Shown: positions 7,591 to 58,856 of the stretch, piece by piece | Position numbering within the stretch: position 1 is the stretch's first letter | Layout: each line of letters starts with the position of its first letter | Position numbers and translations under genes: made by a program | The notes under the pieces: generated by a model | Told to the model about the DNA's origin: nothing | The model's input: the letters and a program-made list of their open reading frames with translations, nothing else | Databases searched by the model: none | NCBI GenBank assembly: GCA_964234715.1 | Contig: OZ174287.1 | Reading direction: 5' to 3' (one strand) | Source of the DNA: Podarcis melisellensis | Taxonomy: Eukaryota | Length of the DNA: 64,000 bases

Positions 7591-7811
7591 TAGTTTTTAA
7601 AATGATTATGGGGGAGGGAATGAAAAGAGGGTTTCAACGTGTGTCTCCACAAAGCCCTGTACGGTAGGCTATTGTTTCCTTTTTGTGGCTGGGGACCAAG
7701 ATGGGCGAGTGAGTTGCCTAAGGTCAAGTGAGGACTATGCTGGCTCCGTTGGGAAGCTTCCAGCCCTTTCTCCTTCTCACACATTTCTCTTTCTCTCCCC
7801 TCCCCCCCCAG

Positions 7812-8474
7812 ATGCCCATCCTCAAGCAGTCCCCTGTCTCCCACTCCAAGAAGCGGCCGCGTTTGGACCGGGCCATGATCAGCGCCCCCTTGGGTGATTT
7901 CCGGCACACGATGCACATCGGCCGTGGGGGAGATGCTTTTGGCGACACGTCTTTCCTCAGCAACCACGGGGGCTCCAAGGCCAACGGGCTGCCTCCCGAT
8001 GTGTCCCCTGGGGCCTTCTCCAGCCCTGGAGATGCCCGCTTTGAACTGTTGTCTCCCCCCGGGAGTGGGAACGGCATAGTTCAGAGCCCGGCGACGTCGA
8101 CCCCGGATGGCAGCTTCGTGGCCCTGCAGACCCCAGAGAAGGCAGAGCGGCAGAAGCCCTCTAACGGAAGGGACTGGGACCTGCCTCAGAAGTTCCCCTT
8201 GGAGAGCCCCACATTGGAACATGCCGAATCCCTCCTCTCTTTCCAGTTGGACTTGGGGCCTTCCATCTTGGACGATGTGCTGGGAGTGATGGACAAAGAC
8301 TGGGACAGCATCAGAGGGCAGGAACAGGAACCGCTGAGGGTCGAAAGCCCAAAGGGGCACCTCCATCGCGGTGGTGAAGAAGATGAGGAGGCGGCGGAGG
8401 AAGAAGAGGAGGAGGAGGACGAAGGGCAGGGCTACAGTTTTGAGGATGAACAGGATGAAGAGATTGGACTATAG
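7812..8474 (+). CDS. CDC42EP5: Cdc42 effector protein 5 (Borg3), 220 aa, single coding exon
   Basis: MPILKQ start directly after a polypyrimidine tract and cag|; CRIB ISAPLGDFRHTMHIGRGGDAFGDTSFL; BD3 septin-binding LLSFQLDLGPSILDDVLGVMD; ends in IGL as I recall for human CDC42EP5; adjacent to LENG9. Confidence 0.93.
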   Translation: MPILKQSPVSHSKKRPRLDRAMISAPLGDFRHTMHIGRGGDAFGDTSFLSNHGGSKANGLPPDVSPGAFSSPGDARFELLSPPGSGNGIVQSPATSTPDGSFVALQTPEKAERQKPSNGRDWDLPQKFPLESPTLEHAESLLSFQLDLGPSILDDVLGVMDKDWDSIRGQEQEPLRVESPKGHLHRGGEEDEEAAEEEEEEEDEGQGYSFEDEQDEEIGL

Positions 8475-19971: not shown

Positions 19972-21118
19972 TAGTTGGCTCCACCTGTCATTGTCTTGAT
20001 TTACAGCTGCTTTCCTTGCTTTCCATCCTACTAGCCTAAATGGACCCTGCTATTCACCCGTGATCTCACACTTTCCCGCTTTCTCTTTTCAATTCTGCCT
20101 CTTGCCAGGCACACCGATTAACACACCTTGCCGATATGTCTCAGGTCTGTTATTTTGCCCCTCCCTCTACTGTTACCGTTCTGAGCATGCGCACAAGTGC
20201 TTCTGTCCCTGTGCATCACATCACATATTTTCTTTTCTTTTAAACCACCACCACCACCAGTATTTTCCAGGAAGGGCACGAGAGCAAACATTACCCAACC
20301 GCATGGAGTTGTTATCTTGTTTCACAATGGACAAGATCACCTCCACCAGCAGCATCTCTCATATTATATTGCTCTTTTATTTTGATACTAATTGTAAGTA
20401 AGCAGCTTTGGAGGGGAAATCACTCTTGGTTGAATGTCAGGGTATAGATGTGATCATTAATATATGTATACACACACACAGACACACACACACACACAAT
20501 AAAATTTAAATCTGATCTACAGAGACCACTGAATGCAAGGTTTTGTGGGTGAGCAGTGTCGCACCTCCTCTTGTTTTTGAAGCCTTACAGGCCCCTCCCC
20601 AGGTGTTGTTGTTTTAAGGTGGTTGTGGTGACTTTGAGGCAGAGAATCCCTTCCTGGTTCAAGCCCCTACATTTCATAAGACACACCTAAGGGAGAGATT
20701 GCTGTCCGGTTGCTACACCTACAGAACCAATTGTCATCATCTTAGTTGATGTGTTTGACCACATTCCTTTCCCACCTAGTGTTCAAAGTTCACATGTATT
20801 TGCTCAGCCATCCACCTAACATGCCTGTAAATGCATGTCGATATTGCCTTCGTTGTGCTCACAGGTGCGGGTGGATTTAAACCAGACACTTCCTGGTTCA
20901 TAATTCCAACTCTTCAGCAGCACCCTGTGCAAACTTGGTCCCTCATTTCGTTCCCGTTTTTAAAGAACAGCATACCACTTCCCAGGCTCTGATTATTCCT
21001 TAAAGCTGCCCTCCTTATGACCCACTGTCCCAGGAACAGCATGTGAGAACTGGTTACAGTAAAATTCCGTCTTCTAAATAATTTTCTTTCTTCCATAGAG
21101 TAATTCCCATTTTTAGCT

Positions 21119-22546
21119 ATGGCTGAACTGGTTCCCTCCCCTGAGGACTCTCCCACTGACCTCTGTTCTGATACCCCTGTGGAACCACTGGCAGCCCCCG
21201 ATTCTCTTCCAACTGAGCAATCCCTTGCTGAGATCGACCTCCCTTGCCGCTTTTTCCTAGAAGGTCGTTGCCGCTTTGGTTCCCGCTGCCGGAACAGTCA
21301 CCCTGGTGACATGGGAGCTGCTCCTCGTTCAGAAGATGGTGGATCCAACTGCAGTCGTTCTCCACAAGGCAAGAAGCCCCCCATGAAGACTGCGGAGGAT
21401 GTTATCTCTCGTCTCCTCTGGGACCCCCAGCTGCCTGCTGAACATTTTTCTATCGGTTACCTCGATCGGTTCCTGGGGGTATTGGAAGAGCCTTTTACTG
21501 CTTTCTCCTGGGAGGACCTGGCTTCAACTGGGCCTGGCGTGCTGGCTATCCCCAAACATAGGATCCACTATTTCAAATACAAGACTCGCATGGTGTGGGA
21601 CAAGGTGAGCCGCACAGACGACGTCTTTGGGTCTACAGGAAGTGGGAGAACCATCTTGGAGGTGATGAAGGAAGTCGACGAGGCAGCCAGAACCATTGAG
21701 GAAAAGGCTCAGGACCATCCTTCAAATGGAGACAGAGAAAGGGAGATGGGAGGTGTTGGACCAGGGGCAGCTAGAGGCAGCGGAGAAGAGGCAGTCAGTG
21801 GTTCAGCCAGAGAAAAACAGGTGGCCGAGACAGCTGACAGACAGGATGAGCTGGATAATTTGGATGCCTTCAGCATCACAAAGGAAAATGACCCAATAGT
21901 GGAAGAGGAGGAAAACACGGCTTTGCAGAGCAGGAAGGTGGGACACCTTCCGCATCGCAAACAGCGTCCCACCCATTTCATAGCTATCCAAGTCACCAGT
22001 CGAGAGACCTGGGAAGCTGTGAAACTCTTCCAAGGCGCCCTCTCCGAGGTTCAGCCAGGCCTAGAAGAGTTCTATACCCCTTTGCCTACTCTGCACATCA
22101 CACTGTGTCTGCTGCACTTAGATACCTCGGAACACATTTGCAAAGCTGTTACGGCACTCCAGGAACTGCAAGCCAACAGCCAGCGCCTGCTGCCCCCTGC
22201 CTTGCTTCTCTCCTTCCACAAGGTTGAAGCTTTCCATTCTCGTGTGCTTTACTTGTCACCAGCACCTACACCTGGGCTGGGATCACTGGCCCGGACTTTG
22301 GAGGATGCCTTTAACAAGAAGGGCTTGGCAGTGATTCCTCCTCCGGACAAAGACAATTTCCACTTGACCATGGTGAAGATCCCACGGGCAAAGGCAGATC
22401 TACGGCTGCCAGTAGATTCCTCATGGATTCCAACTGTTAATGATTTAGGAACACAGGCTGCAGAGGCATTATGTCTGTGTGAGGTTGGAAAAGGTAGGAG
22501 GACTGACGGGTTTTACACCACGGTTCTGAAAATAGATCTATACTGA
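21119..22546 (+). CDS. LENG9: Leukocyte receptor cluster member 9, 475 aa: CCCH zinc finger, MJ1316 domain and AKAP7-like 2H phosphoesterase
   Basis: CRFFLEGRCRFGSRCRNSH; TAEDVISRLLWDP...GYLDRFLG...IPKHRIHYFKY; RPTHFIAI...LHITLCLL...FHLTMVK; convergent with LENG8. Confidence 0.95.
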   Translation: MAELVPSPEDSPTDLCSDTPVEPLAAPDSLPTEQSLAEIDLPCRFFLEGRCRFGSRCRNSHPGDMGAAPRSEDGGSNCSRSPQGKKPPMKTAEDVISRLLWDPQLPAEHFSIGYLDRFLGVLEEPFTAFSWEDLASTGPGVLAIPKHRIHYFKYKTRMVWDKVSRTDDVFGSTGSGRTILEVMKEVDEAARTIEEKAQDHPSNGDREREMGGVGPGAARGSGEEAVSGSAREKQVAETADRQDELDNLDAFSITKENDPIVEEEENTALQSRKVGHLPHRKQRPTHFIAIQVTSRETWEAVKLFQGALSEVQPGLEEFYTPLPTLHITLCLLHLDTSEHICKAVTALQELQANSQRLLPPALLLSFHKVEAFHSRVLYLSPAPTPGLGSLARTLEDAFNKKGLAVIPPPDKDNFHLTMVKIPRAKADLRLPVDSSWIPTVNDLGTQAAEALCLCEVGKGRRTDGFYTTVLKIDLY

Positions 22547-30744: not shown

Positions 30745-30944
30745 NNNNNNNNNNNNNNNNNNNNNNNNNNNNNNNNNNNNNNNNNNNNNNNNNNNNNNNN
30801 NNNNNNNNNNNNNNNNNNNNNNNNNNNNNNNNNNNNNNNNNNNNNNNNNNNNNNNNNNNNNNNNNNNNNNNNNNNNNNNNNNNNNNNNNNNNNNNNNNNN
30901 NNNNNNNNNNNNNNNNNNNNNNNNNNNNNNNNNNNNNNNNNNNN
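30745..30944. other. Assembly gap (200 N)
   Basis: Run of N; a round length suggests a placeholder. Confidence 0.99.
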
Positions 30945-57021: not shown

Positions 57022-57164
57022 CTGTTCTGGAACCTCTTCCACGCCCGGGGCAGACTGCAGACGGCAGTGGTGAAGGAAAGGGCAGAGAGGAAGGAGAAGA
57101 GGAGGAGGAAGAGCAACCCTTCCATGCCATCGTAGCACAGCCCTTTCAGGGCATCCACATAGTC
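57022..57164 (-). CDS. TTYH1: TTYH1 exon 11, TM5 (DYVDALKGLCYDGMEGLLFLLLFSFLSALSFTTAVCSLPRAWKRFQNR)
   Basis: 143 nt, ttattag| acceptor, AG|GTGAGC donor. Confidence 0.93.
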
Positions 57165-57167
57165 CTA

Positions 57168-57510
57168 ATAAAAATAAAAATAAAAATTTTTATTTATACC
57201 CCTCCCTGCACGGCCAGAGCCGGGCTCAGGGCGGCTAACACCAGTAAAATTACAATAAAAATATAATGGGGGGAAAAACCATTTTAAAATACAGGTTAAA
57301 ATACAATTTAAAATGCAGCCTCATTTTAAAAGTAGCCCATAGATCAAAACCATAAGGGGAGGGAAACATAAGGGTCAGACTGAGTCCAAACCAAAGGCCA
57401 GACGGAACAGCTCTGTCTTGCAGGCCCTGCGGAAAGATGTCAAGTCCCGCAGGGCCCTAGTCTCTTGGGACAGAGCGTTCCACCAAGTCGGGGCCAGTAC
57501 TGAAAAGGCC
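57168..57510 (-). mobile_element. L2 LINE 3' fragment inserted at the TTYH1 exon 11 acceptor
   Basis: Encodes RAFSVLAPTWWNALSQETRALRDLTSFRRACKTELF (L2 ORF2 end) with a GTATAAAT(TTTTTA)n tail; TAGG repeated at both ends. Confidence 0.82.
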
Positions 57511-57538
57511 CTAGGGGAAAGAGGAAGGCACACGCAAG

Positions 57539-57546
<8 letters not shown>

Positions 57547-57574
<28 letters not shown>
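57547..57574. repeat. (CA)n microsatellite
   Basis: Direct reading. Confidence 0.9.
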
Positions 57575-57580
<6 letters not shown>

Positions 57581-58496
57581 GAGCAGGGTTAACAGGAGAA
57601 CGGGCCTGCCCAGATGCTCTTCTCAATAGCTTCTTTGGTCATTCTTAAACTCAGTTTCCCTAGAGCAGGGCAGGACAGACTCCAAGCTTGCAGGACCTAC
57701 ATTAAGATTCTTGGAGGGTTTTTTTTAACTAGGACCCTGGTGGTAGCACTCCTTTTGCAACCCACCTTGGATCAGGCCAAGAGCCACCAGCTGAAGACTA
57801 AACTACCAACTCCCGTTTCTCTCTTCCTCTTCTCAGCTGGCAGGATGCTACCTTCTCTAAGCTCCGATGGGCATCTCATTCAAACATACAAAGAGATTCC
57901 CAGTTATCAGGAGGCCATTCTCCTAATCGTTGGCTCCTTTTGATGAACCATCAATTGACTGCCCTGGGTTATTAGCCAGCAATAATTTATTCCGAACATT
58001 GTCACGAGACAATGTGTTGGATGTTCGGAACAGCTGCCCAGCAAGATTTTGGCTGAAACACATCAGTCCTTTGAATGAAGTTTAATTTGGGCAGTTTGAA
58101 TGATGCTGTGCTGATGTACTACAATGGATAAATTTGGAAGCTCTCTTCAGAAATGTCATGCTACGGAGACGAGAGACACCGTTCCTCAACGGCATTGTAC
58201 GTGCTGTGAATGACGGACACGGTATTCGACAAAACTGCTGAAATCATAGTAATTGTTCCAGAATAAAATGTAGGGGTCTTTATTTATTTATTTTGCTTCG
58301 GTGTTGGGGTGGCAGGAGCCGCTCTCCCTGTCTTGTAGTTCCCAGCAGTTCGTATTCAGAGGCATCTTTCAGTGGGAGTGGTATGCAGCCGTAGAAAAAT
58401 GAGAGGTATAGGACAAGTAGGGAGAAAGGGGTTCAGTGGAGGGGCCAGTGAGTGTCAGTGGATCACTTAAAGGAAGAATAAGAGTGTGTGGGTTAC

Positions 58497-58589
58497 CTTA
58501 TGAAGTCCCCGGCAGTTGAGCAGAGCAATAAGGTTATGGAATTTGCTTTCTGTGTTGTTCAAAGTGCTCTGGATAGATAAGATGTTTTT
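58497..58589 (-). CDS. TTYH1: TTYH1 exon 10 (KNILSIQSTLNNTESKFHNLIALLNCRGLHK)
   Basis: 93 nt, gcag| acceptor, AAG|GTAACC donor; N-glycosylation sequon NNT. Confidence 0.92.
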
Positions 58590-58763: not shown

Positions 58764-58856
58764 CTCCGCTGCTGGGAAATGTGGGATGGCTTCTCTTTCC
58801 AATCCGTACAGCTGAGAATGTATGTTGGACAATGCCCTCTGACACATGGTGAGCCT
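58764..58856 (-). CDS. TTYH1: TTYH1 exon 9 (RLTMCQRALSNIHSQLYGLEREAIPHFPAAE)
   Basis: 93 nt, ctgcag| acceptor, GAG|GTCAGT donor; close to the recalled human RLTLSQRALANIHSQLLGLEREAVPQFPSAQ. Confidence 0.93.

Follow-up and report, generated by a model that had tools for sequence, protein, structure and literature searches.

Retroposon hits on splice acceptors are known mainly as disease alleles, as in NF1 and canine merle. In merle, as described in the cited sections of PMC7349775 and PMC6091007, a SINEC_Cf retroposon lies at the boundary of PMEL intron 10 and exon 11, the duplication contains the acceptor AG, a T-rich tail serves as the pyrimidine tract, there is competition between two acceptors, and the tail is microsatellite-like in its behaviour. 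The SINE is in antisense, and its oligo(dT) serves a cryptic AG within the element itself. The allele is polymorphic, has not reached fixation in any breed and does harm in its long form. For NF1, the cited section of PMC3219598 describes one AluY in sense within the AG of the intron 14 acceptor and gives exon skipping as the outcome of all reported acceptor insertions (4/4). Introners, in the cited section of PMC11282704, draw a splice AG from the duplicated target and are spliced out; they insert into exons, where they give rise to new introns, and most of them are DNA transposons with terminal inverted repeats. Inserts of the zebrafish element ZfL2-1, obtained in cell culture in a study with splicing outside its subject, show 5' truncation, duplications of 1–8 nt (peak ~5) and microhomology at the 5' join (cited section of PMC4245944). 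Finally, the cited sections of bioRxiv 10.64898/2026.01.30.702498 and PMC2553571 deal with transposable element (TE)-rich cryptic last exons and L2-derived poly(A) signals, respectively.

Here we describe a 346-nt 5'-truncated sense-strand L2, as read on the minus strand, within the TAG|G acceptor of TTYH1 exon 11. A literature search of titles and abstract openings, with subscription papers outside its scope, found nothing on this locus or on an L2 tail that serves as the tract of a constitutive exon.

The insert, its family and its host gene

The window, i.e. the whole stretch of 64,000 nucleotides that was analysed, carries TTYH1 on the minus strand. The gene was identified by exon 4, which matches TTYH1 at E 1.7e-16 vs TTYH2 at 0.017 and whose named records with 99% identity come from Podarcis. 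Exon 11 taken alone has a higher score on TTYH2 than on TTYH1, and the genome contains three Tweety loci. Thirteen exons, using the acceptor at 57164, give an intact open 449-aa TTYH1 frame. The exons and parts of the insert are listed below in minus-strand order of their starts, with "orphan" for the displaced ancestral acceptor; organism I is a relative compared in the next section.

58764..58856, minus strand: TTYH1 exon 9 (joint 58589>58764 in two RNA-type contigs)
58497..58589, minus strand: TTYH1 exon 10, ending at the residue that matches human TTYH1 376
57587..57592, minus strand: branch-point-like TTAAC, candidate ancestral branch point (motif match only), its A ~79 nt upstream of the orphan AG
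57538..57580, minus strand: (TG)n/(CG)n repeat upstream of the orphan acceptor, also in organism I
57511..57529, minus strand: orphaned ancestral polypyrimidine tract and AG (25/30 letters equal to the functional acceptor flank of organism I)
57510..57513, minus strand: 5' TAGG, target duplication and/or microhomology with the L2
57167..57512, minus strand: 5'-truncated sense L2 with the last 45 codons of ORF2 (stop at 57377-57375), 3' UTR and tail
57457..57459, minus strand: TAG stop that the TTYH1 frame would meet on use of the orphan acceptor, for a 390-aa product lacking the last TM segment
57165..57198, minus strand: L2 tail (TTTTTA)n and new AG, the present exon 11 acceptor region
57189..57194, minus strand: AATAAA 25 nt before exon 11, from the L2 3' end; a candidate polyadenylation signal that overlaps the zone in which the new branch point is likely to lie
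57022..57164, minus strand: TTYH1 exon 11, 143 nt (Pfam Tweety 364-411), starting at the residue that matches human TTYH1 377

Read along the minus strand, the (TG)n/(CG)n repeat is followed by the pyrimidine tract and AG (57529-57511), 346 nt of foreign sequence, an AT-only tail, a second AG and the coding exon. An earlier sequence-only reading had placed the orphan AG at 57512-57511, the new AG at 57166-57165, the start of exon 11 at 57164, the exon 10 donor at 58497|58496 and a TAGG at each junction. All of these positions hold, the two TAGG lying at 57513-57510 and 57167-57164. Its insert length of ~345 nt agrees with the 346 nt measured, and its quoted tail proved one A short.

The foreign sequence belongs to an interspersed family with a common 3' end and ragged 5' ends, the shared 5' extent varying by hundreds of nucleotides. 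A genome search with 481 nt around the site gave 3519 candidates, of which 40 were scored; all 39 others (39/39) match only the insert, at 92–94%. The 29 fetched copies (29/29) carry element sequence, without the pyrimidine tract, 5' of the break, so the tract is host sequence and was ruled out as a part of the element. RVT_1 (Pfam) was found in both longer family copies tested (2/2; E 3.5e-23 and 2.4e-10), and 46 of 68 other family rows have a (TTA)n 3' tail, i.e. short tandem repeats rather than poly(A). We provisionally take the family to be L2, as opposed to other LINE clades such as CR1 or RTE, from its ORF2 C-terminal motifs. For the family majority, 59 copies were matched and self, two duplicates and short ones were dropped, leaving 55 copies. 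The window copy differs from this majority at 10 of 303 non-CpG sites (3.3%), and four of the ten differences are common to 19–23 copies, which puts the divergence at about 2–3.3%. Two L2-bearing loci, L065 (G000:C2) and L067 (G000:C134), are 99.5% identical over 1,739 nt including flanks and represent either an unplaced duplicate haplotype or a recent duplication.

The element reads AGG at its own 5' break and its tail ends in TA. Because the last letters of TAGG match the 5' break of the element and the first letters match its tail, the letters allow any duplication length from 0 to 4 nt. As proof of a 4-nt duplication TAGG was rejected, since blunt insertion with 2-nt microhomology at each end fits equally. 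Under either reading, TAG|G is rebuilt. Duplications of ~5 nt and microhomology at 5' joins are described for L2-clade inserts (cited section of PMC4245944), and among 27 sibling copies 13 have 3–5-nt duplications under a loose rule, which lets chance matches through as well. The combination that marks an L2 copy, a short duplication or microhomology together with an empty site in a relative, is thus present here.

TTYH1 exon 13 can be read in two frames, both open (minus strand; 54718-54527, 50944-50866, 48938 onward). A GC-type donor within exon 12 (CAG|GCACGT, after 49 nt) leads to the 449-aa form and a later GT donor to a long form with one further exon; TTYH1 models of 449 and 537 aa exist in other squamates. 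RefSeq isoform X3 of two Podarcis species (P0024, P0025; 442 aa) skips exons 2 and 3 in frame and, by our reading of the models, is without the first two TM segments of TTYH1. Two neighbours on the plus strand, at 21104-22546 (CCCH, MJ1316 and AKAP7-type domains) and at 7722-8474 (CRIB/BORG domains), are presumably LENG9-like and CDC42EP5-like, respectively, and we assume that both are syntenic with TTYH1 in human. The nearest assembly gap in the window, 200 N at 30745-30944, is >26 kb away from the insert.

Empty site, carriers and age

Relatives were compared through assembled contigs of 7 of the 24 available runs. A first, longer contig comparison skipped the tandem repeats at both junctions, dropped one joint and 11 loose ends and covers the flanks only; missing cover in it (X2 at ~57520-57735; introns in X15 and X17) carries no evidential weight. 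Both runs of organism I (2/2, one sample) have an empty site, on contigs of depth 2.7 and 5.4 that contain exon 11, TAG and then the tract that lies 5' of the L2 in the window. In run X22, 25 of the 30 shown letters are identical to the orphan tract of the window and all differences are transitions. The tract joined directly to exon 11 is the empty site that the sequence-only reading had predicted. Its account of the locus, with an L2 on the acceptor, the old tract displaced and the tail now before exon 11, is likewise supported, as organism I has the same acceptor on exon 11. In run X23 of organism I, a tract form 7 nt shorter occurs at window position 57167, with the longer form in a probably chimeric contig; the shorter form is a heterozygous deletion or a contig error and, if real, means that the ancestral acceptor tolerates variation. 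Organism I also has the (TG)n/(CG)n repeat, which is therefore older than the insert. The (TG)n repeat was considered as a later silencer of the orphan and ruled out, since in organism I it stands beside a working acceptor.

Two other organisms have tail-type sequence directly before exon 11, namely (ATTT)n in organism B (27 loose letters) and (TTA)n in organism E (12 loose letters), in both cases with the view limited to the tail. By hand counts, intron 11 differs from the window by 5 substitutions in ~261 nt in B, 13 in ~259 nt in E and 11 in 235 nt in I, and exon 11 of E has no listed difference. The B and E runs possibly have the same source as the window DNA; for E, the divergence speaks against this. 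The 3.3% distance of the copy from the family majority is about half the 5–6% intron distance to E and I. With the tail in E and the empty site in I, the insert is about as old as the split from these two organisms, in agreement with its distance from the family majority. So the insert is old and common to several lineages and not a fresh allele.

The L2 pool of organism I differs from the pools of B, F and G at 57363, 57390, 57465 and 57471, which suggests a subfamily burst on one lineage and a usable phylogenetic marker. At these four sites the pools of F and G match the pool of B and the window copy, and in exon 11 F and G have one listed difference each from the window. F and G are likely to belong with the insert carriers, because of these single exon 11 differences and an L2 pool like that of B and not that of I.

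Use of the two acceptors

The contigs of runs X15 (organism F, depth 336) and X17 (organism G, depth 138) run from exons 9, 10 and 11 into exon 12. Exons 10 and 11 lie at record positions 153-246 and 254-389 in X15 and at 617-710 and 718-853 in X17; the 7 letters between them are exon letters skipped by the comparison, and the exon 10–11 join is thus exact and without insert. Both runs were taken as RNA by guess, and assembled contigs drop rare isoforms, so that minor use of the orphan would be invisible in them. Among 29 AGs tested from 57696 to 57142, only that of the tail (exon from 57164) keeps an open in-frame exon, and the exonic differences tested are all synonymous (6/6). The end of exon 10 is reached by 32 of 34 fetched proteins. 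In 28 of these the normal sequence follows, among them all Podarcis models (4/4), and four models of other reptiles run into the intron after exon 10. We consider it very probable that the L2 insertion represents a rescued and tolerated acceptor, with the TAG|G of the tail in routine use and full-length TTYH1 likely still made. Among the alternatives left by the sequence-only reading, the rescued splice site is thus favoured, a new hypomorphic allele is unlikely, and a poison acceptor was not seen in the X15 and X17 contigs.

The two acceptors were compared by composition measures only. The orphan has a pyrimidine fraction of 0.85, a pyrimidine run of 16, an AG-free zone of 93 nt and TTAAC at -79. 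The new acceptor has a pyrimidine fraction of 0.75 (all T, broken by A), a run of 5 and an AG-free zone of 35 nt, and the branch-point-like motif nearest to its AG is TTTAT with the A at -17. Among 12 TTYH1 acceptors it has the shortest pyrimidine run (5 vs 6–20), the tied-lowest pyrimidine fraction and the highest share of T. Three donor-like sites were found inside the L2, all weak. Read-through from the orphan meets a stop after 17 codons, 435 nt before the next junction, with loss of the last hydrophobic segment.

In the mechanism we propose, a sense L2 would have landed in TAG|G and shifted the ancestral tract and its AG 346 nt upstream. Priming of the (TTA)n tail on the target TA would have recreated TAG|G whatever the duplication length. 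U2AF would bind the U runs of the tail, and the branch point used would be a weak one within the L2 3' end. The orphan, stronger on paper, would lose the competition, as it would define an exon of 489 nt vs 143 nt without a good donor in the L2. Under exon definition, a 489-nt internal exon is poorly defined compared with a 143-nt exon, and this difference is the best, if putative, explanation for the success of the new acceptor over the orphan. Any read-through product of the orphan would be a target of NMD, its premature stop being the one predicted by the sequence-only reading (17 codons, then TAG at 57459-57457). In the protein, TM2–TM5 form a tight bundle (cited section of PMC8361169). 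The tail may later have drifted, or have been selected, toward more U.

Tail composition was measured in 46 of the 68 other family rows, the remaining 22 being too short or cut at C or G. In the window tail, T makes up 0.80 of the final 20 letters, a value reached by none of the 46 (two reach 0.75; mean 0.63), and the (TTTTTA)n unit occurs in none of the 68 rows. The tail of B is 0.75 T by hand count, and E has the tail usual in the family. A gain of U in two lineages, by a different route in each, hints at selection on the tail, a post hoc reading of two cases for which slippage alone can suffice. A wider reading, tentative and on the whole unlikely, is that sense L2 insertions self-heal at TAG acceptors: the tail would prime on TA, rebuild a U-rich TAG|G and be tuned by selection, and the insertion would also leave behind, in a brain gene, a complete and switchable cryptic last exon made of the strong former acceptor, the stop and the AATAAA. 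It includes tuning twice, to TTTTTA in the window and TTTA in B, with TTA unchanged in E. If true, L2-rich vertebrate genomes would hide constitutive exons with TE-tail acceptors and a dormant truncating switch upstream.

It is improbable, in our estimate, that normal splicing dominates beside a regulated cryptic last exon made of the orphan acceptor, the stop after 17 codons and the L2 AATAAA. Such an RNA would escape NMD and encode a 390-aa TTYH1 without the last TM helix, perhaps gated by TDP-43 at (TG)n. Acceptor, stop and poly(A) signal are all present, although AATAAA is commonplace here (12 in 11,648 nt of TTYH1). The orphan is undecayed, yet at the age of the insert an intact orphan is expected even without selection. 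In human, the 3' ends of plus-strand L2 copies are preferentially located upstream of poly(A) sites and carry AATAAA (cited section of PMC2553571), and cryptic last exons are described as TE-rich, repressed by TDP-43/SFPQ and able to be physiological (cited section of bioRxiv 10.64898/2026.01.30.702498). The working acceptor of organism I is flanked by the TG repeat, however, which argues against silencing by the repeat alone, and the main X15 and X17 contigs cross the junction unbroken. No exon 10–L2 contig is listed in these two runs, under a 5% filter and a deep L2 pile-up with rare forms dropped, and the L2 peptide occurs in 0/34 fetched proteins, the models of which are partly homology-driven. 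The sequence-only reading, which spoke of a poison acceptor, had overlooked the L2 AATAAA; a cryptic last exon would be the more interesting leak product than an NMD poison exon.

Very doubtful is an orphan that works as an NMD-coupled poison acceptor, with read-through to the exon 11 donor, an exon of 489 nt and lower TTYH1 output. The orphan is stronger on paper, its branch-point-like motif is kept and NMD would hide the product from steady-state RNA, but an internal exon of this length would be poorly defined, the L2 offers only the three weak donor-like sites and the allele has persisted across lineages ~5% apart. Large inserts also weaken exon definition in NF1 (cited section of PMC3219598). 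Most improbable is a hypomorphic allele of recent origin that still segregates and is confined to this animal or species. The whole insert is visible in one assembly only; against this, tail-type sequence replaces the tract in both other close-group organisms compared (B and E, 2/2), and the copy is 2–3.3% away from the family majority. The L2-type tail that two other organisms have at this position and the conservation of exon 11 make a hypomorphic effect unlikely as well. An assembly artefact, i.e. a repeat mis-joined at the exon boundary, has a negligible probability: the 5' junction is without a sighting in independent runs, but a tail at the 3' junction is present in independent runs of two organisms, the two flanks of the insert, put together, give the empty site of organism I, and the closest assembly gap in the window is >26 kb away.

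A probable rescued acceptor among known systems

The preferred reading, a rescued acceptor fed by the L2 tail, does not call for a rare landing. With ~200,000 acceptors per genome, 1–4 usable positions, 1.57 Gb and two strands, the chance is roughly 0.6–2.5 in 10,000 per insertion, or ~0.2–0.9 landings for 3,500 copies. By this rough estimate, one acceptor landing per genome is not improbable, and survival is what the tail explains.

With merle, the locus shares a retroposon at the boundary with the acceptor AG inside the duplication, a T-rich tail as pyrimidine tract, two competing acceptors and a microsatellite-like tail. In place of the antisense poly(A) tail of the merle type it has a sense tail of the (TTA)n type. 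Unlike in merle, the AG served by this sense LINE tail is the one at the position belonging to the exon, and the allele is an old one that several species have in common. The sense AluY of NF1 has the same geometry as the TTYH1 insert, with exon skipping as the opposite outcome. By analogy, the difference between disease and rescue is likely to be explained by the ends of the elements, poly(A) in a sense Alu and (TTA)n in L2. As in introners, the splice AG comes from the duplicated target and the element is spliced out; unlike introners, the TTYH1 L2 adds length to an intron that was already there and takes the place of its 3' end, and organism I has this intron without the element, so no new intron arose within an exon. 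The 5' truncation, short duplication and 5' microhomology are those of ZfL2-1. Like TE-rich cryptic last exons, the orphan combines an intronic acceptor, an early stop and an AATAAA; unlike them, it is the gene's former constitutive site, and no use of it was seen in the X15 and X17 contigs.

As an insert without demonstrated change of protein or phenotype, the TTYH1 L2 is instructive rather than astonishing. It belongs to a natural series (no insert and TTA, TTTA and TTTTTA tails) that bears on how a newly formed acceptor can prevail over a stronger one that is still intact and on whether a microsatellite tail is selected as a tract. Set beside the disease alleles of NF1 and merle, it is a hit that a conserved brain gene has tolerated and that several species retain, with a relative providing the empty site. 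Tail chemistry, the U-rich tail of L2 vs the poly(A) of Alu and L1, suggests itself as a simple reason.
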